DNA from: Alphaproteobacteria bacterium
Lineage (GTDB): Bacteria; Pseudomonadota; Alphaproteobacteria; UBA7887
DNA: 64,000 nucleotides
Reading direction: 5' to 3'
Assembly: GCA_965243325.1 (NCBI GenBank)
Contig: CBDEUQ010000003.1
Coordinates: forward strand, 30,508 to 94,507
Each line of letters opens with the position of its first letter. Positions within the stretch are counted from its first letter, which is position 1. A program made the position numbers and the translations under genes. Below the pieces are notes generated by a model. That model saw only the letters and a list, made by a program, of their open reading frames with translations, made no database searches and was not told where the DNA came from. This document shows, in pieces, positions 42,582 to 57,857 of this stretch.

Positions 42582-43131
42582 GGCCTTACCCTCCCTGGCG
42601 GCGCCCCCGGACCTTGCCGCCAAAGCCGCCGCGCCGCAAGACGCCGCCGCGGGAGCCCCCTGGACCCCGGATCGTCGCTCCGCTCCGTCCGGGGTGACAG
42701 GTGGGGGCGGGGTAGGCGCCGTTCATCCTCAACTGTCACCCCGGGCTTGACCCGGGGTCGCATCATACTGTAGCCAACTCCCGCCACCATCCGCCGTTCG
42801 GCGTCGAATGTATGATACAGCATTGTAATAGTTGACGATTTTCTGTCCTCCCCGGTTTCGCGGCCCTTGACTTGCCGCCAGATATCGCCTTCAATCGCCC
42901 CCGACTTGATGCCGCTCGCATACGGTTTGATGACTGGAATTCGCGGCAATTTTCGAGAGGGCGCGGCGAGCGCGCGAATCCCGGAAAACGCCCGTTCGGT
43001 CCCGCGGTGACGGAAGAGGAGGAAGAGGCCGGCGGCGGTTGGGGTGGATAGGCGGAGGCGGAGCCCGGAGTTGCCATCGACTTCCTCATCCTCGCCGTCC
43101 TTCGCACCAACGCCTTCGGGGAGAGAACACC

Positions 43132-44316
43132 ATGCCGAAACGGAGCACCCTCAGGCTGACCAAGCGGAGTGTGGACGCGCTCAGGCACGGCGGCAAGGAT
43201 GCGATCTTCTGGGACCGCGATTTGGCCGGCTTCGGTGTGCGCGTCCACGCCACCGGGCGCAGGCTCTGCATCGTCCAGTCGCGGGGGCCGACAGGCCTGA
43301 AGCGGGCCACCCTGGGGCCGGTCGGCGACAGGACCGTCGAGGAGTATCGCCGCGAGGCGGCGGCGGCCATCGACCGCATCAAGCGGGGCGAGGACCCGAG
43401 GCCGCCGGAGCCGGCGCCCGAGCCCACCGTCGCCGATCTGGCGGCGCTCTGCCTGAAGGACCATGTCGCCGCGCGCTGCAAGCCGGCGACGGCGGAGAAC
43501 TACCGGAAGTCCATCGACTGCCACATCCTGCCGGCGCTGGGGCGCAGGGCGTTGAAGGATGTGATGCCCGATGATGTGGCCAAGCTCCATCACCGGCTGC
43601 GCGGCACGCCGGCGGCGGCCAACCAGGCGATCTGGGTGCTCTCGAAGATGTTCTCGCTCGCCGAGAGCTGGGAGATGGTCCCGCCCGGGCGCAACCCGTG
43701 CCGGCATGTCCGCCACTACCGCGCCACACCCCGCGAGCGCTTCCTGACGCCGGACGAGTTCCGGCGCATCGGCGATGCGCTGAAGACCTTCGAGGACAAT
43801 GGCAAGATGCAGCCGTCGGCCATCGCGGCGATCCGCCTCTTGATGCTGACCGGCTGCCGCTCGGACGAGATCCTCACCCTGCAATGGGACGACATCGACC
43901 GCGCGGCGCGGGTCATCCGGCTCCGCGATTCGAAAACGGGGCCGCGCATGGTGCCGCTGACCGCGCCGGTGCTCACGGTGCTGGACCGCATCGAGCGGCA
44001 GGACGGCGTGCCCTGGGTCTTGCGGGGATCGAAGCCGAAGTCCCGTCTCACCTGCCTCTCCTGGCACTGGCGGAAGGTCAGGACGGCGACCGGGCTCAAC
44101 GACGTGCGGCTTCACGACTGCCGGCACAGCTACGCCAGCAGGGCGCTGGCGCTGGGCGAGGGTCTGCCGGTCATCGGGCGCCTGCTCGGCCATGCCAGGG
44201 TCGGCACCACCGCAAAATACGCCCACCTGGTGCGCGACGCCGAGAAGGCGGCCGCCGCCAGGACCGGCGGCAGCATCGCCGCCTGGATCATGCCCGGCGA
44301 CGCCGAGGCGGCGTGA
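43132..44316 (+). CDS. P4-type tyrosine integrase (DUF4102 arm domain plus catalytic domain), first of a tandem pair
   Basis: N-terminal ...LTKRSVDALRHGGKDAIFWDRDLAGFGVRVHATGRRLCIVQ... arm domain; catalytic HDCRHSYASRA...TAKYAHL (R-H-R-Y present). Confidence 0.85.
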   Translation: MPKRSTLRLTKRSVDALRHGGKDAIFWDRDLAGFGVRVHATGRRLCIVQSRGPTGLKRATLGPVGDRTVEEYRREAAAAIDRIKRGEDPRPPEPAPEPTVADLAALCLKDHVAARCKPATAENYRKSIDCHILPALGRRALKDVMPDDVAKLHHRLRGTPAAANQAIWVLSKMFSLAESWEMVPPGRNPCRHVRHYRATPRERFLTPDEFRRIGDALKTFEDNGKMQPSAIAAIRLLMLTGCRSDEILTLQWDDIDRAARVIRLRDSKTGPRMVPLTAPVLTVLDRIERQDGVPWVLRGSKPKSRLTCLSWHWRKVRTATGLNDVRLHDCRHSYASRALALGEGLPVIGRLLGHARVGTTAKYAHLVRDAEKAAAARTGGSIAAWIMPGDAEAA

Positions 44317-44327
44317 GGGGAAGAGCA

Positions 44328-45503
44328 ATGCAGCAGAGGACGATCTCCAACCGCTCCGTGGCCGCCATGACGGTCGAGCGCGACACGGTGTTCTGGGACC
44401 GGACCGTGACCGGCTTCGGGGTCCGGGTCTATCCGACCGGCGGCAAGGTCTACATCGCCCAGGCCAGGGGGCCGGAAGGGCCGAAGCGTGTGACGGTGGG
44501 CCGGCACGGCGTGCTGAATGCCGACGAGGCGCGCCAGAGGGCGGCGCTGATCGTGACGCGCATCAAGGCGGGCGAGGACCCGGTGCCGCTGCCGCTCGCG
44601 GCCCGGGCGAGGGCCAATGGGAGTCCGACCGTGGCCGACCTCGCGGCGCGCTATCTGGCGGATCATGTCGAGGTGCGGCTCAAGCCGCAGACGCGGGCCA
44701 AGACCCGCGGCGTGCTCCGCCGCCACATCCTGCCGGCCCTCGGCAAGCTGCCGGTGGAGACGGTGGAGCGCCGGCACGCGGTCGATCTGCACCGAGGGCT
44801 GAGCGACCGCCCGGTGACGGCGAACCGGGCGGTCAAGACGCTGGCGCACATGTACCGTCTGGGCGAAGGCTGGGGCCTGGTGCCGGCGGGCTGCAACCCG
44901 TGCCGGTCGATCGAGAAGTATCCCGAGCGCGGCCGCGAGCGCTTCCTGACCGACGCCGAGTTCGCCCGGCTCGGGCAAGTGCTGGACGACGCCGTGGACG
45001 CCGGCGCCGTCCCGCCCGTGGCCGCGGCGGCGATCCGCCTGCTGATGCTGACCGGCTGCCGCAAGGGCGAGGTGCTGGCGCTGCGCTGGACGGACGTCGA
45101 TCTCGACGCCGGCGAGCTCCGCCTGCCCGACGCGAAGTCCGGTCCCCGCGCGGTGCAGCTGCCGCCGCCGGCAGTGCGGCTGCTGGACACGCTGCCGCGC
45201 CGGGCGGGCAGCCCGTGGGTGTTTCCGGGCAGGGACCGGGCCGGGCGCTACAGCGCGGGCGGCCTCGACCACGCCTGGCACGCCGTGCGCGAGGCCGCGA
45301 AGCTGGAGGACGTGCGGATCCACGACCTCCGGCACAGCTTCGCTTCGAGAGCGCTGGCGCTCGGCGAGACCCTGCCGGTGATCGGCAAGCTGCTGGGTCA
45401 CAACGACATCGAGACGACCGCGAGATACGCCCATCTGGCGCAGGATTCCGTCCACGAGGCGGCGGAGAGAATCGCTGCCAGCATCGCGGCCGAGATATTG
45501 TGA
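44328..45503 (+). CDS. P4-type tyrosine integrase, second of a tandem pair
   Basis: Starts 11 nt after int1. FWDRTVTGFGVRVYPTGGKVYIAQ arm domain; HDLRHSFASRA...TARYAHL catalytic motif. Confidence 0.85.
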   Translation: MQQRTISNRSVAAMTVERDTVFWDRTVTGFGVRVYPTGGKVYIAQARGPEGPKRVTVGRHGVLNADEARQRAALIVTRIKAGEDPVPLPLAARARANGSPTVADLAARYLADHVEVRLKPQTRAKTRGVLRRHILPALGKLPVETVERRHAVDLHRGLSDRPVTANRAVKTLAHMYRLGEGWGLVPAGCNPCRSIEKYPERGRERFLTDAEFARLGQVLDDAVDAGAVPPVAAAAIRLLMLTGCRKGEVLALRWTDVDLDAGELRLPDAKSGPRAVQLPPPAVRLLDTLPRRAGSPWVFPGRDRAGRYSAGGLDHAWHAVREAAKLEDVRIHDLRHSFASRALALGETLPVIGKLLGHNDIETTARYAHLAQDSVHEAAERIAASIAAEIL

Positions 45504-45628
45504 TCCGCGCCCGCGAACAACCCCGTCGGCGGGGCGGCATCGCGGTCTGCGCCGAGGTCTTGACGCCGGGCGGGGCAAGGGACTACCTTCCCTTTCGAGA
45601 CGCAGTCCAGTACTGCCCTCCTTCCGAG

Positions 45629-45657
45629 GCCCGCGCTCCGGTGCGGGCTTTCGTGTT
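45629..45657 (+). terminator. probable terminator after the integrase pair
   Basis: GCCCGC-gctccggt-GCGGGC hairpin followed by TTTCGTGTTTCC. Confidence 0.45.
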
Positions 45658-45672
45658 TCCGGAGGGCCGTGG

Positions 45673-46416
45673 ATGACGTATTTCGCCTATCTCGACGAGT
45701 TCGGCCATGTCGGCCCCTATGTGGCCCGGACCGACCCCAAATTCCGGGAGAGCCCGGTATTCGGCCTCGCCGGCTTCGTCCTGCCGGCCGACGAGGTGCG
45801 CGGCTTCGGGACCTGGTTCTACCAGCGCAAGTGCGAGCTTCTCGCCTTCGAGATCGGGCGGTCGGAAAAACACCCGGCCGAGTGGGAGAAGAAGGGGTCC
45901 AGCCTCTACACGGCGACCAACGTCACCCGCTATCCCGAGCTGCGCCGGTTCACCAACCGGCTGCTGAACAGGATCGAGGCGCTCGGCGGGTTCGTCCTCC
46001 ATGTCGGGATACGCAAGACGGGCTCTCCGGAGAGGCACGATCCCAACCGCCTCTATGCGCGGGTGTTTCTGGAGGCGATCAAGCGGATCGACCAGTTCTG
46101 CGCCGTCGACTGCGATCCGCCGGAGGAGTTCGTGCTGATCCTCGACGAGCACAACCAGCGCCCGGCGCTGGTCGCGCAGGCCGCGCAGAGCATGTACGCG
46201 CGCACCGAACGGCGACGGCACCTTATCGAGCCGCCGTTCCATGTCGAGAGCCACCGCTACCAGACGCTTCAGGCCGCCGACTGGATCGCGGGTCTGGTCG
46301 GACGCCTGGGCGCGGTCCGGGCCGAACCGGCGGTCTGGCCGGAGAACGAGGTCTTCCGCCGGTATTTCGAGCACCGCATCAACCGCGTCAGCCGCCGCAG
46401 CGGTATCCGCCGCTGA
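45673..46416 (+). CDS. DUF3800 domain-containing protein
   Basis: N-terminal MTYFAYLDEFGH (YxDESG-like) and C-terminal HVESHRYQTLQAADWIAG are the two DUF3800 signature blocks. Confidence 0.6.
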   Translation: MTYFAYLDEFGHVGPYVARTDPKFRESPVFGLAGFVLPADEVRGFGTWFYQRKCELLAFEIGRSEKHPAEWEKKGSSLYTATNVTRYPELRRFTNRLLNRIEALGGFVLHVGIRKTGSPERHDPNRLYARVFLEAIKRIDQFCAVDCDPPEEFVLILDEHNQRPALVAQAAQSMYARTERRRHLIEPPFHVESHRYQTLQAADWIAGLVGRLGAVRAEPAVWPENEVFRRYFEHRINRVSRRSGIRR

Positions 46417-46499
46417 CATCGGCTCCGGGGCCTCCGATCCAACACGAGCGAGCGGCGATGACGCGCTGCATCCGGCGCGCGATCGCGTGAGCTTCCCGT

Positions 46500-46850
46500 T
46501 CAGCGGCGGCCGTGCCCGGCGCCGGCCAGCACGCCGTCGACCTGGGCGCGCGACAGGCGGAACTCCCGGGCGATCGCCGCCGGCTTGAGGCCGGCCTCGA
46601 AGGCGGCGAGGATCAGCTTTTCCTGTCCCGCCGTCACCGGCGCGGGCTTGCCGCGCCCCTTCCCTCCAGACGTCTTGCCGGCCTGCCGCCCGCGCCGGCG
46701 GGCTTCGGCGGTTGCCGCGTCGACCAGCCGGTCCAGCTCCGCGTCATCGAGATGGCGCAGTGAATGCTCCAGATCGGCGGGCAGCATCGGCGTGCCCTCG
46801 TTCCGCCCGCGCCCGCCGGGATTCCTGCCCCCGTCCCTGCCTTGCGCCAT
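46500..46850 (-). CDS. small HTH DNA-binding protein (possible regulator or excisionase-like)
   Basis: C-terminal ...GQEKLILAAFEAGLKPAAIAREFRLSRAQVDGVL... helix-turn-helix. Start ambiguous (46850 or 46787). Confidence 0.4.
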   Translation of the reverse strand: MAQGRDGGRNPGGRGRNEGTPMLPADLEHSLRHLDDAELDRLVDAATAEARRRGRQAGKTSGGKGRGKPAPVTAGQEKLILAAFEAGLKPAAIAREFRLSRAQVDGVLAGAGHGRR

Positions 46851-47094: not shown

Positions 47095-47439
47095 ATGAGC
47101 GCGGCATTCGCGATTCCCCGCAACACGGCCTCGACGTTCCTCACCCATTTCTTCGGCAGCGGCCTCTCCGACGACACCTATGTCGTGGAGCGGTTCAAGG
47201 CGATGGTGGACGGCGACATCCGCCGTTGCGCCGACCGGCAGCCCGCGGCGAAGACGGGTACGACGAAGACGGGCCGGCGCAAGACGAAGGACGCCACCGT
47301 CACCCGCAAGGCGGTGCAGGATCTGCGTCCGGCCCGCACCGAGATCATCGTCTGCACCGGGCTCAAGACCCGGGGCGGGGTGCAGATCTGGGGCGACATC
47401 GCCTGCGGACTTTTCCACGACCGCAAGCAGAAGGGCTGA
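47095..47439 (+). CDS. hypothetical protein (114 aa)
   Basis: In-frame ATG inside longer ORF 46585..47439; no recognised domain. Confidence 0.35.
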   Translation: MSAAFAIPRNTASTFLTHFFGSGLSDDTYVVERFKAMVDGDIRRCADRQPAAKTGTTKTGRRKTKDATVTRKAVQDLRPARTEIIVCTGLKTRGGVQIWGDIACGLFHDRKQKG

Positions 47440-47548: not shown

Positions 47549-48154
47549 ATGGCTCGACGCGACATCGACGAGCGGCTGGACAGGCGGCGGCGGCGCAACC
47601 TGGACCGCTACCATCGGCGCGTTGCCGAACGCCGGGAGCGCGGCCTGTGCATCAAGTGCGGCCAGCGCCCGCCCGCGCCGGAGCGCAGCATCTGCGCACC
47701 CTGCGGCGAGAAGGCCAGGGCCTCCGAGCGTGCCCGCGCCGCTCGGCTCCGGGCCGAGGGCAAGCCGGTGCGCGATCCCGAAGCCAGACGCTGGGCCGAC
47801 CGCGAGCGCGACCGCCGCCAGCACGCCGAGCGCCGGGCCGCCGGCATTTGCGTCAAGTGCGGCCGGGTCCCGGCGCTCCCGGAGCGGACCCAGTGCGGGC
47901 CTTGCGCCGAACGGCGTCTGGCCGCCGACCGCGCCCGTCACGCCAGAGCGAGAGCCGAGGGCAGGCCGCCGCGCAATTCGGAAGCCAGTCGACTGGCCGA
48001 CCGCGAGCGCTGCCGCCGCCGTCGGGTCGAACGCCGGGCGGCCGGGCTGTGCATCCGCTGCGGGACCCTCTCGCCCGAAGCGGGTCGGTCGATGTGCGAG
48101 CCCTGCCGCGACGACCGGGATTACACGGTCAACTGCACGCTCAAGATGCGTTGA
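47549..48154 (+). CDS. Arg-rich protein with 3 tandem Cys4 zinc-ribbon modules (family member 1)
   Basis: RBS GGAAGGGGG. Three repeats of ...ERRxxGLCxKCGxxPxxPERxxCxPC...: CIKCG...CAPCGEK, CVKCG...CGPCAER, CIRCG...CEPCRDD. Lacks the C-terminal domain of members 2 and 3. Confidence 0.6.
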   Translation: MARRDIDERLDRRRRRNLDRYHRRVAERRERGLCIKCGQRPPAPERSICAPCGEKARASERARAARLRAEGKPVRDPEARRWADRERDRRQHAERRAAGICVKCGRVPALPERTQCGPCAERRLAADRARHARARAEGRPPRNSEASRLADRERCRRRRVERRAAGLCIRCGTLSPEAGRSMCEPCRDDRDYTVNCTLKMR

Positions 48155-48170
48155 GGGTCGGCGGTTTCGG

Positions 48171-48476
48171 GTGACGCACCCGTTTCATCCTCTTCACGGG
48201 CGCGAGTTCGAGCTGATTGAGAACTGGACGATCATGGGAGTGGCGTGGCTTCGATACCCAAGTGACGACGGGACGCTGCGCAGCATCCGACAGGCTTGGA
48301 CCAGCGTAGCGGACGAGGATCCGTTTGTGCGCGTGTCGGCGGGCCGGTCGGCGTTCCGCCTCTCGGACCTGTTTGCGCTGGCGGCATTGCTGGACAGCCT
48401 GGATGGGGACGACCGCACCGTGCGGGAGAACGATAACGGGGCGGAGACTGTCAAGGAGATTTTGCCGAATGTGTAA
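48171..48476 (+). CDS. hypothetical protein (101 aa)
   Basis: GTG start just after the stop of the preceding gene; no recognised domain. Confidence 0.35.
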   Translation: MTHPFHPLHGREFELIENWTIMGVAWLRYPSDDGTLRSIRQAWTSVADEDPFVRVSAGRSAFRLSDLFALAALLDSLDGDDRTVRENDNGAETVKEILPNV

Positions 48477-48583
48477 GAATGTTTTTGCACATAAACGGGG
48501 AATACAGGGCATCTTGACGGCCAGGAAGACGGCGTCTTCTGGCTATTATGTGAAGTATAGCATGGAGTTTCCGATCATAAAGA

Positions 48584-48620
48584 GGAAGAAAGGGGTTGAT
48601 ACGGCGTTGGGAATGTGCAT
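48584..48620 (+). promoter_or_regulatory. sigma-70-like promoter in an AT-rich patch upstream of the HTH - ORF - serine recombinase operon
   Basis: TTGATA-N17/18-ATAAAT/TAAATA inside a locally AT-rich about 180-bp segment that also holds the palindrome GAAGACggcGTCTTC (48519-48533). Confidence 0.4.
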
Positions 48621-48658
48621 AAATATACTTACATTCCTTTTCCGACGGAGCCCGCGCC

Positions 48659-49117
48659 ATGGCCAGACGCCCCGCCGACGCCAAGACCCGCGCCCTCAAG
48701 GAGCATGGCTGCCTGAACCCGAACGCGGAGGCGGTGCGCGACGAGCTGTTCGTGTCCAATGCGTTCTTCGACCCGCGCGATCTGCTCCAGGTCAAGTACG
48801 AGATGCTGCGCCGGGTGCGCGAAGACGGCGTGCCAGTGAGCCACGCCGCCGCCAGCTTCGGCGTCTCGCGGCCGACCTGGTATCAGGCGCAGCGCGCATG
48901 GGAGGCCGGCGGCCTGCCGGGCCTGCTGCCGGACCGGCCGGGACCGCGCCGGCCCCACAAGCTCAGCGACGAGGTGGTCGAGGCGCTGCGGGCGGCGAAG
49001 AGCGAACGGCCGGAGCTGACCGCCGCCGAGATGGTCGAGCTGGTGCGCGACCGCTTCGGCGTCTCGGTCCATCGCAGCAGCATCGACCGCGCCCTGGCGC
49101 GGGGAAAAAAACGATGA
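48659..49117 (+). CDS. helix-turn-helix protein with IS630/IS481-type winged-HTH N-terminal domain (no DDE domain)
   Basis: …AASFGVSRPTWYQAQRAWEAGGLPGLLPDRPGPRRPHKLSDEVVEALRAA...ELTAAEMVELVRDRFGVSVHRSSIDRAL... follows the HTH-tnp pattern; only 152 aa. Confidence 0.55.
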   Translation: MARRPADAKTRALKEHGCLNPNAEAVRDELFVSNAFFDPRDLLQVKYEMLRRVREDGVPVSHAAASFGVSRPTWYQAQRAWEAGGLPGLLPDRPGPRRPHKLSDEVVEALRAAKSERPELTAAEMVELVRDRFGVSVHRSSIDRALARGKKR

Positions 49118-49419
49118 CGATGCACAACCCACCCTGCACCGCGCTCCCGGCGGCGGAGCCTTCGGCCTACGGACAGGGGTACGAACGGATGCGCCGTCAT
49201 GCCGTCGAGCCCGGCGCCGTCCACGACCGCCACGGAAGCGGCGTGGTGGCGTTGCGCGGCGTCGCGGCCTGGCTGCATGCCTTCGCCGCGCTGCCCGCCC
49301 CGCCGGCGGCCGCGTGCGCGGGGGCCGCGCCCGGGCCGTTGCCCACCGGGGTCGAGACGTCGGCGATCGACATTCTGATCGCCATGCTCAACGGCCATAT
49401 GGAAGGAAAGCCGGCATGA
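49114..49419 (+). CDS. hypothetical protein (101 aa), translationally coupled between the HTH gene and the serine recombinase
   Basis: ATGA overlap at both ends (49114-49117 and 49416-49419). Confidence 0.45.
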   Translation: MTMHNPPCTALPAAEPSAYGQGYERMRRHAVEPGAVHDRHGSGVVALRGVAAWLHAFAALPAPPAAACAGAAPGPLPTGVETSAIDILIAMLNGHMEGKPA

Positions 49420-51437
49420 GCAGCGCCCATCAGAAGGTGGATACGGGCCATCTGAGCCGCGATGCCTACTTGTACGTGCGCCAGTCAAGCCTGCAGCAGG
49501 TGTTCGACCATGGCGAGAGCACGCGCCGCCAGTACGCGCTGCGGGAGCGCGCCGTGGCGCTGGGCTGGCCGACCGAGAACATCGTCGTGATCGACCGCGA
49601 TCTCGGCCTCTCTGGCGCCGACAGCGACCGCGAGGGGTTCCAGCACCTGGTCGCCGAGGTCGGCATGGGCCGGGCCGGCATCGTGCTCGGGCTCGAGGTC
49701 AGCCGTCTCGCGCGCAACTCCACCGACTGGCATCGGCTGATCGAGCTCTGCGCGCTGAGCGAGACACTGATCCTCGACGAGGACGGCGTCTACGATCCCG
49801 TCGACTTCAATGACCGGCTCCTGCTGGGGCTTAAAGGCACGATGAGCGAGGCAGAGCTGCACATGATGCGCGCCCGGCTGCGCGGCGGGACGCTCAACGC
49901 GGCCAAGCGCGGGGAGTTGAAGCTTCCTCTGCCGGTGGGGCTGGTCTACGACCCGCTCGACCAGGTGGTGCTCGACCCCGACGAACAAGTGCAGCACGGC
50001 CTGCGCCTGCTGTTCGACACCTTCACCCGGACCGGCTCCGCGCAGGCCACGGTGAAGCACTTCAACAGAGAGAAGCTGCTGTTCCCCCACCGTCCTCTCA
50101 GCGGACCGCAAAAGGGCGAGCTGCATTGGAAGCGGCTGAAGTTCTCGCAGGTGATCAACACGCTGCACAACCCGCGATACGCCGGTGCCTTCGCGTACGG
50201 CCGCACCCGGCGCCGCCGGCGGCCCGGCGGCGGTGTCGAGCACAGGCGCCTGGCGCGCGAGGAATGGACGGTGCTGTTGCGCGACGCGCACCCGGGCTAC
50301 ATCACCTGGGAGCGGTTCGAGGAGAACGAACTGCAACTCCGGAACAATGCGCAATCCTACGAAGCGAAGCGCCGCAGCCCCCCGCGCGAGGGACCGGCAC
50401 TGCTGCAGGGCCTGGCCATCTGCGGCGTCTGCGGCCGGAGCATGACGGTCCGCTACCGCACCCGTAAAGGACGGCAATATCCCGATTATGTGTGCCAGAG
50501 AGAAGGGATCGAGACAGCGAGCGGCAGCGTGTGTCAGGGCGTATCGGGCGGCGCCATCGATCGCGCGGTCGGCGAGCTGCTGGTGGAACTGGTGACACCG
50601 CTCACGCTGGACGTCGCGCTCCAAGTGCAGAACGAGCTCACGGCCCGCGCCGAGGAGGCCGATTTATGGCGTTCCCAACAGGTGCAGCGCGCCCGCGAGG
50701 AAGCGGACTTGGCGAGGCAACGGTTCATGCAGACCCATCCCGACAACCGGATGGTCGCCGACGTGCTGGAGGCGGAATGGAACGCGAAACTCCGGGCCCT
50801 GGACGAGGCGCAGCACGAGCTCGATCGCAGCCGCGCCGAGCCTGACCGGGGGTTGGACGATGAGCAACGAAAGCGAGTGCTTGAGCTGGCCAGAGACTTC
50901 CCCCGCCTGTGGAACGATCCGGCGACGCCGCACCGCGAGCGCAAGCGGATGGCGCGGCTGCTGATCGAGGACGTGACGCTGACCAAGGCCACGCGGAGCC
51001 TGGGAGTGCGCCTGCGCGGCGGCGCGACCAGAGAGCTCATCTGGACGCCGGATCCACGCGTGTATGAAATCCGCAGGACCAGCGATGAGATCGTTGCCGA
51101 GATCGACAGGCTGTTGGATGACCACACGGATGGCGAGATTGCGTCGATCCTCAATACGCGCGGATCCCGAACCGGGCATGGCCATGCCTTTACCCCGAAG
51201 CTGGTGACAGCAACCCGCCACAATCGGTCTCTCAGGTCACGCTACGAGCGGCTTCGCGATCGTGGGCTGTTGACGATCCATGAGGCCGCCGACCGGCTCA
51301 CCGTCTCGATCCGCACCATCAAAAAATGGCGCAGGGCCGGGCGTCTGCGCGGTTATGCCTACAACGACAGACCGGAATACCTGTTCGAGGTTCCCGATCT
51401 CCCGCCGACCAGGCAGGCAAGTCGATGCGGCCCGTGA
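49416..51437 (+). CDS. large serine recombinase (resolvase/invertase N-domain, recombinase domain, zinc ribbon, coiled coil)
   Basis: N-terminal YLYVRQSSLQQ...S...Q (catalytic Ser), ...GLKGTMSEAELHMMRARLRGG..., zinc ribbon LAICGVCGRSMTVRYR...YVCQ..., long C-terminal coiled coil; 673 aa. Confidence 0.85.
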   Translation: MSSAHQKVDTGHLSRDAYLYVRQSSLQQVFDHGESTRRQYALRERAVALGWPTENIVVIDRDLGLSGADSDREGFQHLVAEVGMGRAGIVLGLEVSRLARNSTDWHRLIELCALSETLILDEDGVYDPVDFNDRLLLGLKGTMSEAELHMMRARLRGGTLNAAKRGELKLPLPVGLVYDPLDQVVLDPDEQVQHGLRLLFDTFTRTGSAQATVKHFNREKLLFPHRPLSGPQKGELHWKRLKFSQVINTLHNPRYAGAFAYGRTRRRRRPGGGVEHRRLAREEWTVLLRDAHPGYITWERFEENELQLRNNAQSYEAKRRSPPREGPALLQGLAICGVCGRSMTVRYRTRKGRQYPDYVCQREGIETASGSVCQGVSGGAIDRAVGELLVELVTPLTLDVALQVQNELTARAEEADLWRSQQVQRAREEADLARQRFMQTHPDNRMVADVLEAEWNAKLRALDEAQHELDRSRAEPDRGLDDEQRKRVLELARDFPRLWNDPATPHRERKRMARLLIEDVTLTKATRSLGVRLRGGATRELIWTPDPRVYEIRRTSDEIVAEIDRLLDDHTDGEIASILNTRGSRTGHGHAFTPKLVTATRHNRSLRSRYERLRDRGLLTIHEAADRLTVSIRTIKKWRRAGRLRGYAYNDRPEYLFEVPDLPPTRQASRCGP

Positions 51438-51473
51438 CGAAAGCCGAAATCTGCCCCGGTGTTCGACGGAATA

Positions 51474-52355
51474 ATGGAGGTGCAGTATGCAGCATGCTTC
51501 CGGCGGGCCGCGAAACGCCTGCGCCGCGCCGAGCGCCGGGCCGCCGGCCTCTGCGAAACCTGCGCGGCGCCCGTGACCGGCAGGGCGGCCTATTGCGACT
51601 CCTGCGCCGCCGCCCGGAACGAACGGCGGCAGCGCAATCCGGAGCCGGCGCGCGAGGCCGACCGCCGACGCTATGCCGAGCGGCGCAAACGGGGCGACTG
51701 CACGAGCTGCGGCAAGCCGGTCCAGGGGACGGCCGAGTGCCGGACGTGCCGCGACGCTCACCGGGCACGCTACGACTCCCGCCGGGCCGCCGGGGTCTGC
51801 GTCAAGTGCCGGACCCCCACCGACGGCGGCGCGGCCTACTGCGATCCCTGCGCCGCCGCCAAGGCCGCGAGCCGCGACCGCGACCGCGCGGCGGAATACG
51901 CGGCCAGGCGCCGGCGGTATGCCGAACGGCGGGCGAAGGGGCGCTGCGTCGCGTGCAACGCGCCATCGCCGGACGCGGCGCGCTGCAAACCTTGTGCGGC
52001 CGTCAACGCCGGGCAGCGTGATCGTGAGGCGGAGAAAGCCGCCCGGCGCCGGCGGTATGCCGAGCGGCGGGCGAAGGGACGCTGTGTCGAGTGCGACGCG
52101 CCGTCGCCCGGGGCGGCGCGGTGCGAGCCCTGTTCCCTCCGGCACCGCGAGCGCTCGGGAGCGTTCCGCGGCATCCCGCTATGGGACCCGAGCTGGACGG
52201 TGATCGAGATCGCCACCGGGGTCTGTCACGGCACCTATGACAGCGAGATGGAGGTCGCGGCCTGTCTCGCCTTCGCCAGGCTCTCGCGCGACGAGGTCGA
52301 GGTGATCGCCGACGCCAGCCCGATGGCGGGTTTCATTGCGCCCGGTTGGCAGTGA
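51474..52355 (+). CDS. Arg-rich protein with 5 tandem Cys4 zinc-ribbon modules plus a conserved C-terminal domain (family member 2)
   Basis: Repeats RRRYAERRAKGRCVACNAPSP.AARCKPC... (the last two nearly identical at DNA level), then C-terminal ...FRGIPLWDPSWTVIEIATGVCHGTYDSEMEVAACLAFARLSRDEVEVIADASPMA... Confidence 0.6.
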   Translation: MEVQYAACFRRAAKRLRRAERRAAGLCETCAAPVTGRAAYCDSCAAARNERRQRNPEPAREADRRRYAERRKRGDCTSCGKPVQGTAECRTCRDAHRARYDSRRAAGVCVKCRTPTDGGAAYCDPCAAAKAASRDRDRAAEYAARRRRYAERRAKGRCVACNAPSPDAARCKPCAAVNAGQRDREAEKAARRRRYAERRAKGRCVECDAPSPGAARCEPCSLRHRERSGAFRGIPLWDPSWTVIEIATGVCHGTYDSEMEVAACLAFARLSRDEVEVIADASPMAGFIAPGWQ

Positions 52356-52425
52356 TGAGCGGGGAGATCCCTGCTGCGTCGCCGGCCCGCCGCCCGCAAT
52401 TCAGCACGACAGGAAGGACACCGCG

Positions 52426-53574
52426 ATGACCGCGAAGGACATCGACACGCTGCGCGCCGAATATCGCGAACGCTACCACCGCCGCACCGCCGAGCGCCGT
52501 TCGAAGGGCCTCTGCGTGCATTGCGGCGAGCGTCCGCCCAAACCCGGCCGCAGCCGGTGCGAGCCGTGCGCGGCCAAGAAGCGGCCGGCCCACCGCGCCC
52601 GCTACCATCGCCGCACCGCCGAGCGCGTCGCGCGGGGGCTCTGCCCGAAATGCGGCAAGCGCCCGCCCGCGCCGGAGCGCAGCCAGTGCGCGCCCTGCCT
52701 GGAGAAGGACGCCGCCGCCGGCCGGGCCCGGGACGCGAGGCTCAGGGCCGCCGGCATCCCGCGCCGCGATCCGGCCAAGGCCGCCGAGTACGAGCGCGGG
52801 CGCAACCGCCGCCGGGCCGAGTACCGCCGCGCCAGGGGGCTGTGCGCCGCCTGCGGCAAGTCCCCGCCGGCGCCTGGCCGCGTGTCCTGCGAGCCGTGCC
52901 TGGAGACGCGCCGCGCGCAGGACCGCGCGAAATACGCGGCCGGCAAGGCGGCGGGCAAGCTCTACGGCGGGGCCGATCCCGAGGCTTGCCGCAAGGCCGC
53001 CCGCGCCCGCAGCCGGCGGCGGAGGAAAGCCTGGATCGAGGCCGGGCTCTGCGTCCGCTGCGGCGCGACACCGGAGGTCGAGGGCAGCACGAACTGCGAG
53101 GCCTGCAAGCAGAAAAGCCGGGCCAGGGGCCGCCGCAAATACGCCGAACGGCGCGCCGCCGGGCTCTGCACCAAGTGCGGAAGCCCCGCTTTCGACGGCC
53201 TGGCCTATTGCGGCGCCTGCGCCGCCATCCGCGAGGTCCAGCGGCCGCCGGAGGTCAAGAACGCCCAGTCCCGGCGGCGATACGCCGAACGGCGCGCCCG
53301 CGACCGGTGCACCGACTGCGGCGCGCCGTCCCAGGGCGCCTCGCGCTGCGTGCCGTGCGCGGAACGCTCGCACCACCGCTCGACATACTTCAAGGGCATC
53401 CCGATCTGGGACCCGAGCTGGACCGTGATCGAGATCGCCACCGGCGAGGCGCTCGGCACCTTCGACAGCGAGGCCGACGTGGCGCTCTGCCTCGCCTTCG
53501 AGAAGCTGGCGCGCGACCAGGTCGAGGTAATCGCCGACATCAGCCCGATGGCGATGCACACGAGCTGGACCTGA
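52426..53574 (+). CDS. Arg-rich protein with 7 tandem Cys4 zinc-ribbon modules plus the same C-terminal domain (family member 3)
   Basis: RBS AGGAAGGA; repeats ...RRTAERxxxGLCxxCGxRPPxPxRSxCxPC...; C-terminal ...FKGIPIWDPSWTVIEIATGEALGTFDSEADVALCLAFEKLARDQVEVIADISPMA... shared with member 2. Confidence 0.65.
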   Translation: MTAKDIDTLRAEYRERYHRRTAERRSKGLCVHCGERPPKPGRSRCEPCAAKKRPAHRARYHRRTAERVARGLCPKCGKRPPAPERSQCAPCLEKDAAAGRARDARLRAAGIPRRDPAKAAEYERGRNRRRAEYRRARGLCAACGKSPPAPGRVSCEPCLETRRAQDRAKYAAGKAAGKLYGGADPEACRKAARARSRRRRKAWIEAGLCVRCGATPEVEGSTNCEACKQKSRARGRRKYAERRAAGLCTKCGSPAFDGLAYCGACAAIREVQRPPEVKNAQSRRRYAERRARDRCTDCGAPSQGASRCVPCAERSHHRSTYFKGIPIWDPSWTVIEIATGEALGTFDSEADVALCLAFEKLARDQVEVIADISPMAMHTSWT

Positions 53575-53739
53575 CCGGATCGCCGGCCCCGGCCGCCTAG
53601 CCGGGGAACGGGCGCGGCGGGGTCTCCCCGCTGCGCTGCCGGCCCGCCGTCCGCCGGTAATCGACGCGCCGGCCTTCTCGACATGCGTATAGCCGGCCGG
53701 GCGCCCGCCGGCCCGACCCCAACCGAAGGAGCTTTCACT

Positions 53740-54006
53740 ATGACCGCCTGCATCCCCGACGATCCCGCCTATTGCTTCTGTCCGATTGCGGAAGAGGACG
53801 GCGAACCGCCGCAGATTCGCATTTTGGTGGAAGGTCTCATCTTCGCCATCCCCACCGCGCTGGTCGCCCTCGACCGCGAGCAGGGGCTCGACGTGTGCGA
53901 CCGGTTGAACCGGGCGCTCGGTCTCGATCGCGCCTCCTGGACCGCGCTGGCCGCGCGCTGCCTGCGCGCCGGCGCCGGCGGCATGAACGGCAGCACCGTG
54001 CACTGA
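53740..54006 (+). CDS. hypothetical protein (88 aa)
   Basis: RBS GAAGGAG upstream of the ATG; no recognised domain. Confidence 0.35.
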   Translation: MTACIPDDPAYCFCPIAEEDGEPPQIRILVEGLIFAIPTALVALDREQGLDVCDRLNRALGLDRASWTALAARCLRAGAGGMNGSTVH

Positions 54007-54211
54007 AACCGCCCGGAATCGCCGCCGCGCTTTCCGGCTCGCCAACCGCCGCGCCAGTTACCGCGGGCGCGGGGCGTGACGGCGCCGGCGTCGGCACGGG
54101 GTTCGCCCGGGAGTTGGAGGGGAGCTTTCGCGGGGGCGTGTCCGGCAGGGCGGCGGGAGGGAGTCCGGTCGCCTCGATGCCTGGCGCGGCAACGCGAAGG
54201 AGGTTTTCGCC

Positions 54212-54457
54212 ATGTTCCTGTCCGACCATTCCCCCGACCTTCCCGCCGGCAGCCTGCTGCTGGCCGAGCTGGGGATCGACCCGGCCGCCGTCCGCGAGGC
54301 GATCGAGGACGAGCGCGCGATGCGGTGCCCCGAGCGACCGGCGATCTATCCCGAGCACGGTTTCGCCGGCCTCTTCCCGGAACCGGCGGTGGGCGGTTTC
54401 GGCGAGGCGGTGCCGGACGAGCCCTGGGACCCGGCGTCGTCGCTCCCTCCGGCGTGA
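54212..54457 (+). CDS. hypothetical protein (81 aa)
   Basis: Strong RBS GAAGGAGG; acidic small protein. Confidence 0.4.
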   Translation: MFLSDHSPDLPAGSLLLAELGIDPAAVREAIEDERAMRCPERPAIYPEHGFAGLFPEPAVGGFGEAVPDEPWDPASSLPPA

Positions 54458-54573
54458 TGGAGGTGGAGGAGGGCTTGGAGAAGGTGAGCGGCGGGGGGCC
54501 GGGGGGAGAGATCGTCCCGGCTTCCCGTCGTTCGCAAACCATCGTCAGAATCCTGAGCCACAAGGAGATAGCA

Positions 54574-55041
54574 ATGGCTTTCGGAAAGAACTACGCGGAA
54601 ATCGTCGGACACCTCGGCGGCGATGTCGTCATCAACCATCTCGCCTCGGGCGGGCGCGTCGCGAACTTGAGCGTGGCGACCGACGAGTCCTATTTCGACC
54701 GCGCCGGCCAGAAGGTCGACCAGACCGAGTGGCATCGCGTCGTCACCTTCCAGGACGGGCTGATCGACATGCTGGAGCGGCACGCCAGGAAGGGCCGGCT
54801 TATCAGCGTCGAGGGCAAGCTGCGGACGCGGCGCTGGAAGAAGGACGGCGACGACTCCTGGCGCTACTCGACCGAGATCCTCGTCGTGCCGGGCGATCGG
54901 GTCCAGTTCTACGACAAGCCGAACCGCGCCAACGGCAACGGCGCCCAGGCCGAGCCCGCTCCGGCGAACGGCGAGGCGATGCCGGCCGGCGGTGACCCTG
55001 CACAGGCCGACGACCTCGGATCGGATCGTATCCCCTTCTGA
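54574..55041 (+). CDS. ssb: single-stranded DNA-binding protein
   Basis: OB-fold N-domain (…WHRVVTFQDGLIDMLERHARKGRLISVEGKLRTRRWKKDG...), Gly/Pro/Ala-rich linker and acidic tail ending DDLGSDRIPF. Confidence 0.8.
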   Translation: MAFGKNYAEIVGHLGGDVVINHLASGGRVANLSVATDESYFDRAGQKVDQTEWHRVVTFQDGLIDMLERHARKGRLISVEGKLRTRRWKKDGDDSWRYSTEILVVPGDRVQFYDKPNRANGNGAQAEPAPANGEAMPAGGDPAQADDLGSDRIPF

Positions 55042-55074
55042 GCCGGTTCCCCTCCCTCCCAACTCGGGCGGCCG

Positions 55075-55100
55075 TTTCGGCGGTCGTCCTTTTTTTCTGC
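55075..55100 (+). terminator. weak terminator-like hairpin plus T7 run after ssb
   Basis: GCCGtttCGGC followed by CCTTTTTTTC. Confidence 0.3.
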
Positions 55101-55184
55101 CGTGGGTCCGGTGTCCGCCGCCGCGCCGGGAGTGGAGAAAAGCGGAGGGTCGGGCAAGCCGACTGAAGAGAGAGGGAGGAGGCC

Positions 55185-55622
55185 ATGGCCATCCGCTACG
55201 TCATCCGCACCGTCGACGAGGACTGGATCGATCTTGTCGACGAACCCGTCCGCATCGACGACCGCCGCGCCGCCTGGGCCGAGGTCCGGCGCCGCATCGC
55301 CGCCGATCCCGATCTGAAGACCGTCGTCATCAATCGCGACAACGGCGCGATCCTCTGGCAGAGCGATCCCGACGTTCCGCCGCGCTACCGCGTCGCCACC
55401 GCCGACCGGACGTACGTCTACGCCATCGACGATGTCGACTTCCCCATTGAGGTCCTCTCCGAGCACAAGGAGAAGGACGACGCCTGGACCGCCTTCTACG
55501 ACGCGGTTGCGGCCTCCGGCGACGAGCTGGTGTTCATCTTCGACATCTCCGGGCCGCAGCGCCGCATCGTCGCCAACTCCGACGATTTCGATCATCTCAA
55601 GCCCGTCCGGGACGTGGCGTGA
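55185..55622 (+). CDS. hypothetical protein (145 aa)
   Basis: Strong RBS GAGGGAGGAGG; no recognised domain. Confidence 0.45.
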   Translation: MAIRYVIRTVDEDWIDLVDEPVRIDDRRAAWAEVRRRIAADPDLKTVVINRDNGAILWQSDPDVPPRYRVATADRTYVYAIDDVDFPIEVLSEHKEKDDAWTAFYDAVAASGDELVFIFDISGPQRRIVANSDDFDHLKPVRDVA

Positions 55623-55942
55623 TGCCGGGCCGGTCGCGTAGGCGGACGGGAGGGTTGGGCGACCCCCTTCGGGGCCGGGCTCTCCGCTCATATCGTCACT
55701 CGCTGGCGCTCGCGCCGAAACCGCTGCGATCCCTGTCGCCTCCGCCCGCTGGCGCGGGCTGCGCGCTCCGCTTGCCAATGCGCCCGGCAGGTCCGGGGAT
55801 CGTTTCCAGGGCCGTGCAGGCCGAGAGGCCGATGGGGTCCGTGCAGGTGGAGAGGGAGGGGCTGGCCGCTGTGCTGTCTCATTGTCCCACACGTGCTCGG
55901 GCCAGCAACCCCTGCGGGGTCCTCCGCTCCGCTCCGGCCTGG

Positions 55943-56055
55943 CCCAAGAAGCTCTAGGGCGGACCGTGAAAGTTGCCGACCGTGAAGATCGCTGGCGCGA
56001 TCTTCCGCACCACTCGCCGACTTTCCGCACCACTCCGCCCAAGAGCTTCTAAGGC
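55943..56055. repeat. repeat-rich intergenic segment (candidate cis-acting site such as oriT, iteron or recombination site)
   Basis: Bounded by CCCAAGAAGCTCTAGGGC (55943-55960) and CCCAAGAGCTTCTAAGGC (56038-56055). Inside are GACCGTGAA x2, the palindrome GATCGCtggcGCGATC and TTCCGCACCACTC x2. Confidence 0.6.
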
Positions 56056-56138
56056 CAGGTGCTCGCCCTGTGCGCGCGTGAGCCAAAGAGACATCACATC
56101 GGCGCACAACGCTCCGGTGCATCCAACAGGAGACCGTC

Positions 56139-57068
56139 ATGAACATCATCGAGAACATCGACACCATCGAAGCCGGCGGGCAGTCCGCCACCGCGACCGC
56201 CTGCGAGCACGCTGCCCTCTTCGGCGCGACCCCCGAGCGGGACGAGTTCGACACCCGGGACGTCTGGGACGCCGACGAAGCGATCTGCGCCATGCAGGAA
56301 GCCTTCGGGCTCCTCGCCGACGCCGTCGCACCGGACGGGTTCCAGCTCGCCGACGAACGCGAGAGCCTGCTGTGGGGCTTCGTCAACATGCTCGACGCCC
56401 AGACCAACCGCCTCGACCGCGCCGCCGACAAGCTGATGCCCGAGCTGCGCGATCTCCAGCGCGAGCAGGACGGCACCGAGATCAAGTCGTTCGAGCTGGA
56501 ACTGAAGACCGACCGCGCGCAGAACCTCACCGCGCGCCGCGATGCCTTCGAGACCCTGCGCGACGCAGCCGCCGAGAGCTACCGCGACGCCACCGGCACC
56601 ACCTGGCGGCCCCGGCGCGGATCGCACGTCTCGCAGACCGGCACGCTCACCTCCGCCGCCATCGACGCCCGCGACTTCGCCCGCGCGAGGCAGGACCGCA
56701 AGACCGCCGCGCACCTGCCGCAGGGCACCCTGGTCGCCATCGCGGGCGGCAAGGACGTGACCGACCCCGGCGCGGTGATCGACATGCTCGACAGGACCCG
56801 CGCCAAGCACGCCGACATGGTGCTCGTCCACGGCGGCGGCCCCGGCGTCGAGAAGATCGCCGCGCGCTGGGCCGAGCGCAACGGCGTCCACCAGGTCGTC
56901 TGCAAGCCGGACTGGGACCGCCACGGACGCGCCGCCCCGTTCCGCCGCAACGAGGAACTGCTCAACCTCCTGCCGAAGGGCGTCATCGCGTTCCCCGGCA
57001 GCGGCATCACCGAGAACCTCGTGGACCGCGCGCGGCAGCTCGGCATCCCAGTCTGCCGCGCGAGCTGA
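56139..57068 (+). CDS. DUF2493 (SLOG / DprA-LOG-like Rossmann) domain protein with an uncharacterised N-terminal region
   Basis: C-terminal ...LVAIAGGKDVTDPGAVIDMLDRTRAKHADMVLVHGGGPGVEKIAARWAERNGVHQVVCKPDWDRHGRAAPFRRNEELLN...VIAFPGSGITENLVDRARQLGIPV matches DUF2493. Confidence 0.55.
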   Translation: MNIIENIDTIEAGGQSATATACEHAALFGATPERDEFDTRDVWDADEAICAMQEAFGLLADAVAPDGFQLADERESLLWGFVNMLDAQTNRLDRAADKLMPELRDLQREQDGTEIKSFELELKTDRAQNLTARRDAFETLRDAAAESYRDATGTTWRPRRGSHVSQTGTLTSAAIDARDFARARQDRKTAAHLPQGTLVAIAGGKDVTDPGAVIDMLDRTRAKHADMVLVHGGGPGVEKIAARWAERNGVHQVVCKPDWDRHGRAAPFRRNEELLNLLPKGVIAFPGSGITENLVDRARQLGIPVCRAS

Positions 57069-57857
57069 CCGCAGCGTCTCGCGGGCCGCGTCGTCATCCC
57101 CGGCAACGGACGATGGCGGCGCGGCCCGTTTTCGCGTGCGCACATCGGGGCTGCGGCCACGCTCCCCCTCGCGCGCGCTTTGCGCGACGCTCGTGCTCCG
57201 GCTCGCCGCGCTCGCCGATCGCCGGTGCGTTCGCTGCCGCTCGCACCGATGCGCTCGCGCTGCGCCTCCCGCCGTCGGCTCCGCCGACCCGCCGGTCGGC
57301 AATCGCGTCGTCCGCCTTCGCACCACGCTTCGCATGAGTGCTTCGGCTACTGCGCCGATCATCGTGCACGACACGATGCACGGCGTCGGCGCTGGTGACC
57401 ATGATTGCGATCATCGCGCGCGTCGCCATTGCCGGCTTCGCCGTCATCAGCCTCCGCAGTCGCGGGCGTGCTCGTGCAGCGCCCGCCGCCGATGCCGCCG
57501 TCACCGCGCTCGACACTTCGTCCCTCCGTCGTGTCGCCGACGATGCCCACTCAAGCGCCGTGGCGGCTCCGATCCGCCGCTCTCGCCGGCTCCGATTCCC
57601 CATCGAAAATACTGCCCCGTTCGGCTCTGTCTCTACGGCGGAGCCGGCGATTTCTCACACCTGCCGCAGACTTCTGCATTGAGCGAGCCCTGACCGGCCT
57701 TCCCGATAGAACGATTTCCGTCGTTGTTTCAGACCGTTAGGCGCAATCCCGCCTGACCCGCGATCCCGCGCGCGGTCCCCGTCTCCTTCCTCAAAACGCC
57801 GTCCTTGTTCCCTGCGAACGGGGCTGCATCCGAGGGAACAGACCGGGAGACCGCGCC

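Follow-up and report, generated by a model that had tools for sequence, protein, structure and literature searches.

In descriptions of integrative conjugative elements (ICEs), the norm is one integrase and a unique attachment site, and recombinase-in-trio (RIT) elements have three recombinases. GInts need three integrases and a small protein (PMC5385486), and the TnpA-type enzymes of Tn554 are "simple" recombinases, which lack arm-binding domains (PMC8138268). Elements that have more than one integrase are mentioned in a survey of ICEs, but only as possible composites (PMC5587801). Here we describe an integrated element, element A, that begins with two adjacent tyrosine integrase genes (Int1 and Int2). 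It lies in a 64,000-nt stretch of contig CBDEUQ010000003.1 from an alphaproteobacterium (GenBank assembly GCA_965243325.1); we call this whole stretch the window, and coordinates are those of the window unless a comparison locus (such as L001) is named. We think that element A is probably (roughly a 70% chance) the integrase, cargo and leading part of an ICE from a family with paired integrases, and that the core of its nick site has been interrupted by a second element with paired integrases, element B.

This family resembles several known systems. Like MOBF ICEs and the transfer origins of F and R388, it has an integrase at the end of the element, a leading region with ssb, and a hairpin with a nick sequence that is identical over 12 nt; its full-length members also encode TrwC, a TrwB-type coupling protein, and TraG. 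MOBF ICEs have one integrase and insert at a tRNA or a unique gene, whereas this family has an obligate pair of integrases, a repeated palindrome as its site, and many copies per genome. Also, nothing of the nick's relaxase side is present in the window's copy. Tn554 is similar in having two adjacent and co-oriented tyrosine recombinase genes at the end of the element and no evident target duplication, but in this family both integrases contain Arm-DNA-bind_3, there is no TnpC-like third gene (the gene after the pair encodes a DUF3800 protein and is not conserved in the family), and the element is conjugative and ten times larger. GInts (ginABCD) and RIT elements share a multi-integrase operon at the end of an island and variable cargo, but here there are exactly two close P4-type paralogues (47% identity) and no conserved equivalent of GinD. 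A preliminary description of this locus, made from the sequence of the window, had compared it to Tn554 and RIT elements. Given the arm-binding domains, the two recombinases, and the lack of TnpC, these are analogies only. In the searchable literature, whose coverage is incomplete so that this is weak evidence of novelty, we came across no ICE with obligately paired P4-type integrases and none that inserts at REP-type (repetitive extragenic) palindromes. The family is apparently undescribed.

Because the GC content of the window is 65-80%, raw lists of open reading frames (ORFs) were useless. Genes were called by third-position GC (GC3 frame analysis) and then checked against Pfam. The comparison loci are mostly metagenome-assembled sequences; L001 is a 113-kb metagenome contig and L082 is the next 10 kb of that contig.

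The DUF3800 protein in the window (45673-46416, + strand; Pfam) is residue-for-residue identical to a protein on L001, which located a second copy of element A. In a blastn comparison, L001 7064-20115 aligns with window 42738-57661, with 97.5% identity over the first 5.4 kb and 99.7-99.9% identity over the remainder. The window has a 3.4-kb insert that L001 lacks (48119-51499), and L001 has an extra insertion sequence (at 14548-16192 of L001). Hence a backbone of about 11.5 kb recurs in another genomic context at 97.5-99.9% identity, which is far beyond chance. To the left of the element is dctP in the window (41574-42581, - strand, the end of the backbone, from GC3 and Pfam) and cobW in L001, and the right sides differ too. 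Because the L001 copy adjoins different DNA on both sides, element A is mobile, with visible limits of 42738-57661. The preliminary description was right that this is a mobile integrated element, and the region it outlined (43099-57332) is real, although slightly too narrow.

The left junction lies at a palindrome. Homology to other copies of element A begins at 42734-42740. More than 15 copies have unrelated flanks as far as (CGTCATG, TTGTCAC, or TGGATAC)-CCCGG-ACTTGNN-CCGGG, and then all of the copies continue with GTCGCAT. The window has the palindrome CCCGG-GCTTGAC-CCGGG at 42740-42756 (+ strand), followed by an element-specific left arm that starts with GTCGCAT (42757-43131, + strand, from an alignment of 12 copies), and the integrase pair begins 375 nt from the junction. 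To the right of the palindrome, the window and L001 are identical at 100/100 positions. They differ at 3/7 bases of the spacer and at 4/7 of the bases that precede the palindrome, and they are unrelated further left. Similarly, L062 and L020 contain identical elements with different 5' flanks, and L037, L038, and L063 are near-identical elements within one genome whose spacer or flank variants differ. Free copies of the palindrome (cgtcatgCCCGGACTTGTTCCGGGcatccacg/catgacg), often as inverted pairs about 90 nt apart, occur in the flanks of L001, L015, L037, L040, L063, and L087. Because there are free copies, and because near-identical elements are joined to different spacer and flank variants, the junction palindrome appears to be a host repeat of the REP type, with the element's own DNA starting at 42757.

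Two 5-bp inverted arms around a 7-bp spacer are the form of a tyrosine-recombinase core site. Judging from left junctions only, the palindrome would be attB, with the crossover in or just to the right of the spacer, so that 42740-42756 would be a target-derived attB half plus the overlap. Near this junction (window 42690-42756), an inverted partner, CCGGGGTGAC, sits 36 nt upstream of the junction palindrome's GTCACCCCGG; such a paired arrangement is typical of REP or BIME-like (bacterial interspersed mosaic element) repeats. Within the left arm, the 12 aligned copies share a promoter-like block, TTGACT-N17-TTCAAT. The left arm also contains the motif TTGATGCCGC-N7-GCGGTTTGATG (window 42930-43000), which is kept even in a subfamily with 60% identity and is a possible arm-type, regulatory, or operator site.

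Int1 (43132-44316, 394 amino acids) and Int2 (44328-45503, 391 amino acids) are both on the + strand and are separated by just 11 nt. Each has the Arm-DNA-bind_3, Phage_int_SAM_3, and Phage_integrase domains of P4-type integrases (Pfam), and the two proteins are 47% identical. Element B's integrases, Int3 and Int4, have reading frames that overlap by 11 nt, and they share about 35% identity with each other as well as with Int1 and Int2. GC3 and Pfam thus agree with the preliminary description that there are two complete and co-oriented integrase genes 11 nt apart, and an alignment bears out its statement that the catalytic motifs are intact in all four integrases (R..K..HxxR..H..Y).

A scan with Int2 against one genome per species found 304 relatives, and we fetched 80 of these loci. 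Their hosts are nearly all metagenome assemblies labelled as Alphaproteobacteria, Rhodospirillales, or Defluviicoccus. (At least one of the host genomes, and possibly others, has a sponge-derived bin name, Spongia_Bin9.) By tblastn, about 70 loci have a homologue of Int1 directly upstream of their Int2 homologue, with identities as low as 57%. Some genomes have multiple copies, with six loci on CBDDOM010000002.1 and three in CBDEUT; OY763326.1, like CBDDOM010000002.1 a complete long-read genome, also has several. To count pairs and build a tree, we used the window and 81 related loci, which together gave 163 full-length integrases. Among these are 64 adjacent pairs, of which 62 are Int1/Int2-type and 2 are Int3/Int4-type. 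When the 163 integrases are placed in a neighbour-joining tree, all of the first-position proteins (62/62) lie in one clade, which includes Int1, and all of the second-position proteins (62/62) lie in its sister clade, which includes Int2. Every module (64/64) has exactly two integrases, the intergenic gap has a median of 18 nt (range -11 to 64), and the R-K-H-R-H-Y residues are invariant in 64/64 first-position and 64/64 second-position integrases, or 128 paired homologues. Because the positions form two sister clades with a constant order and invariant catalytic residues, the pair is one conserved module, which goes back to an old duplication and has since been passed on as a unit. The tree answers the check that the preliminary description had proposed, a phylogeny of the four integrases, and the suggestion made there of a two-recombinase module holds up.

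Relatives of Int2 in a plasmid collection are at most 45% identical (the best, at 40-45%, are from Ruegeria, Paracoccus, and Azospirillum). These P4-type (DUF4102/Arm-DNA-bind_3) integrases of cultured Alphaproteobacteria have the same domains, but the matching gene has no adjacent paralogue in either of the two records we examined (Ruegeria sp. TM1040 and Indioceanicola profundi). A large protein collection contains 7580 homologues of Int2 at E <= 1e-30, all of which are unnamed or have generic names. Exact-protein look-ups of Int1, Int3, Int4, and dctP gave no match, while those of the DUF3800 and DUF2493 proteins did.

We infer that Int1 and Int2 cooperate as one heteromeric recombinase, with an asymmetric core as their substrate. 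XerC/XerD offer a mechanistic analogy only: they too are two paralogues that act on inverted arms around a 6-8-bp spacer, but they have no arm-binding domain, they are host-encoded, unlinked, and controlled by FtsK, and we found no relation to them beyond the superfamily. Alternatively, the element could be an ICE whose integrases work separately, with one acting at the palindrome and the other serving a second target, multimer resolution, or regulation. Both proteins are full-length with their own arm-binding domains, so each could form a homotetramer. Also, the targets of related pairs differ (the palindrome, integrase codons, or the nick region of a transfer origin), which could reflect dual specificity. 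Co-inheritance, tight spacing, and the retention of catalytic residues in both proteins fit a partnership better, without excluding independence, and we consider separate roles to be unlikely.

Next to the variable cargo, element A has a set of genes that recurs in its relatives. DUF3800 is missing from most of the related loci. A module that comprises a 114-amino-acid ORF, zinc-ribbon genes, small ORFs, SSB, and DUF2493 is found, in whole or in part, in about 20 loci. The module opens with the 114-amino-acid protein (47095-47439, + strand), whose gene was found by tblastn in about 20 loci and always upstream of the zinc-ribbon gene. The zinc-ribbon gene encodes 473 amino acids when intact, as in L001 (11877-13298), and it is split in the window into a 5' part (47549-48118, + strand) and a 3' part (51500-52355, + strand). 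Next are a second zinc-ribbon repeat protein of 382 amino acids (52426-53574, + strand), recognized by its direct repeats, and two small conserved ORFs of 88 and 81 amino acids (53740-54457, + strand). The zinc-ribbon proteins are built from 201-nt (67-amino-acid) CxxC...CxxC units and a conserved C-terminal domain; this family has 895 unnamed members and no Pfam domain. SSB follows (54574-55041, + strand; Pfam SSB, 8.6e-21), and then a YAcAr/DUF2493 (SLOG) protein (56139-57068, + strand; Pfam, 6.5e-24). The DUF2493 protein is identical in the window and L001 copies, and its full-length homologues are found on 746 plasmids, of which 470 are conjugative. In pMLb, the gene for DUF2493 adjoins genes for ArdC, ParB, a methyltransferase/helicase, and a toprim protein, a set of the kind found in leading regions.

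To the right of DUF2493, full copies of the element have, on the bottom strand, a hairpin and then GCGTGGGGTGT^G (we use ^ to mark a nick or a junction). L001 has GCACC-ATC-GGTGC as its hairpin and four other loci have GCATC-NNN-GATGC, so the arms that come before the nick motif GCGTGGGGTGTG co-vary (GCACC/GGTGC vs. GCATC/GATGC). The nick site for TraI of the F plasmid is 5'-TTTGCGTGGGGTGT^GGTGCTTT, which is cleaved before GG (PMC2504302), and GCGTGGGGTGT^G is identical to it over 12 nt. Because the nick sequence matches that of F over 12 nt and follows a co-varying hairpin, the family has an F-like MOBF transfer origin (oriT). As in other MOBF-type origins, the relatives have an inverted repeat and a nick sequence at a fixed distance. 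Natively, the window contains only the 3' (leading) half of the origin (57069-57661, - strand, from homology to full copies), with the sequence GGTGT^GAGAAATCG. The predicted nick is on the bottom strand between 57657 and 57656 (GGTGT^GA).

Other copies continue past ...TCTCACACC with CCACGCA(C/T)C and then about 100 conserved nt that end in a terminator-like hairpin and a T-run. (Rfam has no family for this conserved segment in the two full right arms that we searched.) Then come 5-7 short repeats, which differ between subfamilies: GGAGCATAC in L001, and TTCTCTGGAGAACCG in L016 and L063. These arrays beside the nick site lie at 20210-20430 of L001, 9730-9925 of L016, 18250-18450 of L063, and 18440-18600 of L059, and the repeat types of the subfamilies (GGAGCATAC, TTCTCTGGAGAACCG, or GCGCAACTCG-type) are completely different from one another. 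This right arm (GTTCTTGTTTGAC, GGAGCATAC) is absent from the window.

Conjugation genes follow in the relatives. To the right of DUF2493, L082 encodes a PIN toxin and a small partner, a 124-amino-acid protein with a weak NikA-like match, a TrwC relaxase (1042 amino acids, 1.3e-88), a coupling protein of the TrwB/TraG type, and TraG_N. The gene for the 124-amino-acid protein and TrwC also come after the repeats in L016, L059, and L063. The repeats would be candidate binding sites for the adjacent NikA-like accessory protein, with which they may co-evolve. As the preliminary description noted, there is no relaxase in the visible region: the 64-kb window has no gene for a relaxase, a coupling protein, or TraG. 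Its suggestion that the element is mobilisable or limited to excision is contradicted by the full-length relatives, in which an F-like oriT and the genes for TrwC, a coupling protein, and TraG lie immediately rightward of where the window's copy breaks off.

The predicted origin also gives meaning to the order of the genes. The transferred strand would be the bottom strand, and the DNA to enter first would be, going leftward, DUF2493, SSB, and the zinc-ribbon genes. These genes all have the top strand as their coding strand and the transferred one as their template, and the same template orientation has been reported for the leading regions of plasmids (PMC11541004). The module from the 114-amino-acid ORF to DUF2493 is best read as the leading region of an ICE. 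More broadly, the family looks like ICEs in most respects: element A has an integrase at its end and is found in different genomic contexts, and family members have a relaxase and coupling protein in cis, although the window's copy, as far as it is visible, does not.

What ends element A in the window seems to be element B. A-type homology ends at 57661, while B-type homology starts at 57653-57655 in L083, L087, and L088, which are 85-91% identical at the DNA level. The four copies of B (including the window's) begin with (T/A)CACACCTGCCGCAG... after four unrelated left flanks, and TCACACC (57655-57661, + strand, from the alignment of the copies) is common to the nick region of A and the end of B. 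A short common core is the expected footprint of site-specific recombination. Furthermore, L057 (approximately 3379-3511) holds an uninterrupted version of the sequence that flanks B in L088 (...GGCGCCCGTTAAGGTTCTCACACCTGCCGCATCGGTGATGCC...). On its other strand, this sequence has the hairpin GCATC-ACC-GATGC and GGCAGGTGT^G, which is a variant of the transfer origin, and then GTATGCTCC-type repeats. This target has 14 nt of identity to the end of B. The left flank in L083 has a hairpin, a spacer, and CACACC, which is the form of the 3' half of the origin. In other words, B's left end (TCACACCTGCCGCAG) is found in four contexts, and in three of the four cases B is inserted in the nick region of a transfer origin; L087 is an ordinary chromosomal intergenic site. 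B's left end also lies about 197 nt upstream of Int3, which is the usual distance from the junction to the first integrase in this superfamily. Because the four copies of B share their start base and L057 shows the uninterrupted target, element A appears to be interrupted by B within the core of its nick site, via the 7-nt core TCACACC, instead of ending there. The stretch from 57069 to 57857 (about 790 nt) has no convincing ORF by GC3; it had been taken for the end of the element, but it seems to consist mostly of the origin's 3' half, which the insertion of B severed within the nick core.

From 57662, B comprises a left arm, Int3 (57858-59009), and Int4 (58999-60183), all on the + strand, and then low-GC DNA to the end of the window (identified from Pfam, comparison of copies, and composition). 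Because homology among the B copies stops just after Int4, B's cargo appears to be variable, and in the window it would be the low-GC DNA that runs off the end. GC content falls to 52-63% from 60.2 kb on, and the genes at 60200-64000 are probably B's cargo. The ORFs of 464 and 294 amino acids in this region have no family match. We also noticed the C-terminal part of an MmeI-like restriction-modification enzyme (63443-63967, - strand), which runs off the end of the window. A metagenome scan with Int4 gave one useful short contig.

The end of B looks like part of an origin itself. On the bottom strand, it has the hairpin GCAG-AAGT-CTGC, 9 nt from the nick, and GGCAGGTGT^G; the loop varies among copies. 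The hybrid sequence in the window's A/B nick region is GCAGAAGTCTGCGGCAGGTGT^GAG. The predicted nick lies inside the shared core, with A's native recognition hairpin replaced by the end of B. In its present state, A presumably cannot transfer, and B's end may be a functional mimic of oriT.

The break at 57661 could instead have been made by a relaxase, by recombining two origins or an origin and a pseudo-nick, or by an ordinary deletion; either way, the distal half of A would be gone. B's end resembles the 5' half of an origin (GCAG-N4-CTGC and GGCAGGTGT^G on the bottom strand), the break is only 5 nt from the predicted nick, and TrwC-type relaxases are known for oriT-specific recombination, which Draper et al. 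(2005, cited in PMC2504302) reportedly described. A truncation, possibly by a relaxase, was our first reading, but we dropped it given the four copies of B and the site in L057. The four copies of B, of which the one in L087 sits in ordinary intergenic DNA, share their first base, and this base is at the usual distance (about 197 nt) before Int3; also, L057 provides an uninterrupted target with 14 nt of identity to B's end. We now view this kind of break as improbable.

The lineages of the paired-integrase superfamily might have been retargeted to sequences that are conserved and functional, in host genomes and in one another, with A using the palindrome, a lineage with about 60% identity using D-x-K-T-G codons (described below), and B using the nick core of A-type elements. 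B may even parasitise the ICE, by being mobilised by the ICE's relaxase while disarming its origin. This is a tentative idea.

Another proposal, that of the preliminary description, is that element A is complete as seen, as a small mobilisable or excision-only island that ends in the ORF-poor stretch, with B merely adjacent. The absence of a relaxase, coupling protein, and TraG from the window and the lack of a convincing ORF at 57069-57857 are what this predicts. But the independent copy in L001 runs unbroken past the position that corresponds to 57661, into the rest of oriT, the repeats, TrwC, and the coupling protein, and three other members of the subfamily continue likewise. Also, the homology stops within the nick core, exactly at the left end of a B-type element, and there is no att-like repeat of the left junction near 57.6 kb. 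We think this is very unlikely. The remaining alternative, raised in the preliminary description, is that Int1 and Int2 come from two islands that integrated successively at one site; tandem accretion is common and paired-integrase elements do pile up in related loci, but the 11-nt gap leaves no space for an att site, the order of first and second integrases is the same in 64/64 pairs, and the sister clades diverge in parallel from the window's proteins (from per-locus identities), so we give this almost no credence.

Overall, we favor the following scenario, in which element A is part of an interrupted ICE. It would belong to a large family, mostly from uncultured Alphaproteobacteria, whose hallmark is an Int1-Int2 operon of paralogous P4-type integrases. 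Int1 and Int2 would act together as a heteromer, in the manner of XerC/XerD or of TnpA/TnpB from Tn554, and would join the circular element to a host palindrome (5-bp inverted arms with a 7-bp spacer between them) and not to a tRNA gene. Going rightward, the element would have variable cargo, the leading region, and a MOBF nick site like that of F, and full-length relatives continue with repeat arrays, the NikA-like gene, TrwC, the coupling protein, and TraG. B, with Int3 and Int4, would have inserted site-specifically in the nick-site core, and the 3.4-kb element separately split the zinc-ribbon gene. (The order of these insertions is our inference.) This would leave the A copy in the window with no usable origin, relaxase, or right end, and its distal half would lie beyond B and outside the window, or would have been lost. 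If B's insertion was a simple one, then the DNA beyond B should contain CCACGCA(C/T)CG and the hairpin, the repeats, the conjugation genes, and attR (CCGGG followed by CATCCACG or CATGACG).

Several points weigh against this scenario. The window ends at 64000, before any distal half of A could be seen. We recovered no attR and no empty chromosomal site for an A-type element. TraG_N is the only gene for mating-pair formation that we identified in the relatives, whose fetched flanks end before the rest would be reached; in L066, Pfam found nothing further in the ORFs that adjoin TraG. Int1 and Int2 could act on different sites or in different steps. Finally, some of the arrangements could be artefacts of assembly, since they come mostly from metagenome assemblies; the same junctions do recur in independent assemblies.

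The search for att sites took several forms. An all-against-all comparison of left flanks yielded no empty site and only another repeated insert, of 3.5 kb. We scanned for half-palindromes as candidates for attR, and found only the ends of other small elements. A flank of 65 nt that is common to L015 and L017 was considered as an element end, but it belongs to a larger repeat unit. In the window, a search for direct or inverted repeats across 42-64 kb found only coding paralogy (the integrases and the zinc-ribbon units). ARAGORN predicted no tRNA or tmRNA across the whole 64 kb, which agrees with the earlier statement that there is none at the junction. As for the comparison to related genomes that had been proposed to define the empty site and the att repeats, it established the limits and the left junction of element A, but the empty site and attR were not recovered.

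The 3.4-kb insert that splits the zinc-ribbon gene is a mobile element in its own right. CCGG flanks the insert on both sides (48115-48118 and 51500-51503), and the empty site in L001 has a single CCGG inside the intact gene for the 473-amino-acid zinc-ribbon protein. A 100% identical copy, of 3389 bp, is present in another genome (L008 13935-17323), in the opposite orientation and with the same right-hand sequence. According to Pfam, the insert's only genes encode an HTH_32 protein (48659-49117) and a large serine recombinase of 673 amino acids (49416-51437), with the Resolvase, Recombinase, and Zn_ribbon_recom domains. With these three domains, an empty site, and a common core at both ends, the insert has the features of a large-serine-recombinase element. 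Although the serine-recombinase module had been listed as part of A's cargo, 48119-51499 (+ strand) is an independent small mobile element, as the empty site and the copy in L008 show. It resembles other small elements of this type in its domains, in its precise insertion, and in the short identical sequence at its junctions. It differs from them in that it carries only HTH_32 besides the recombinase, in its palindromic CCGG, and in having an identical copy that lies inverted at the same site in another genome. The central dinucleotide has a known role in serine recombination, and the palindromic center of CCGG would explain insertion in either orientation.

Our gene calls and Pfam results agree with the earlier account of about 12 kb of non-housekeeping genes after the integrase pair. 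A small helix-turn-helix (HTH) protein of 95 amino acids (46500-46787, - strand), whose gene was also called in L001/L082, has weak matches to HTH_23 and invertase-type HTH domains. A protein of 145 amino acids is encoded between SSB and DUF2493 (55185-55622, + strand, from the GC3 profile). The start of this ORF is spanned by an indel of about 130 nt (window 55128-55262 vs. L001 17713-17723), and the 207-amino-acid gene that was called in L001 at that indel, in another frame, looks spurious. The 145-amino-acid protein matches no family, and neither it nor the small ORFs or the zinc-ribbon proteins could be assigned a function with NCBIfam, PHROGs, or PADLOC.

Other loci illustrate how these elements interact. 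In twelve loci of the subfamily with about 60% identity to Int2, the left junction is always ...CCCGAYNNNAAGACAGGS^GATTTTTTC..., and this junction (..AAGACAGGC^GATTTTTTC..) falls inside the D-x-K-T-G codons of a resident integrase gene; the incoming element's first integrase lies about 200 nt further downstream. Insertions at D-x-K-T-G are seen in L039-L042, L048-L052, L055, L056, and L058-L060. The disrupted genes are Int1-, Int2-, Int3-, or Int4-like, and the insertion would inactivate the resident element's integrase. Paired-integrase elements in these genomes thus appear to insert into one another often. Another repeated element lies between the left junction and Int1, in either orientation, in L005, L019, L056, L058, L061, L064, L060, and L022, and L077 has two tandem copies of it (1767-3810 and 5338-7381, about 3.57 kb apart). 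One end of that element (..CCGGTTTAGG / ..CCGGTTTGGG) abuts the same palindrome. Also, a 1.4-kb segment in L015 (3858-5222) carries ACAAGTTAGCGCTTATGGG as its inverted ends, both of which adjoin one half of the host palindrome; it looks like another small element that targets the same repeat.

The family would be very abundant, with thousands of homologues of Int2 in public assemblies, none of which has been named beyond "integrase." The window's copy is a disrupted example, and the interest lies mainly in the features of the family and in the targeting of one element by another. The integrases are inherited as a pair, insertion is at a repeated palindrome, a genome can tolerate many copies, and relatives hit each other's integrases and origins. 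If the pair is heteromeric, it would be a programmable-looking two-subunit system whose changes in specificity could be read from natural variants. In the relatives that target oriT, one mobile element would clearly be disabling another or hijacking it. There is also a lesson for annotation, as an "island without relaxase" may be half of an ICE that has been split by another element.

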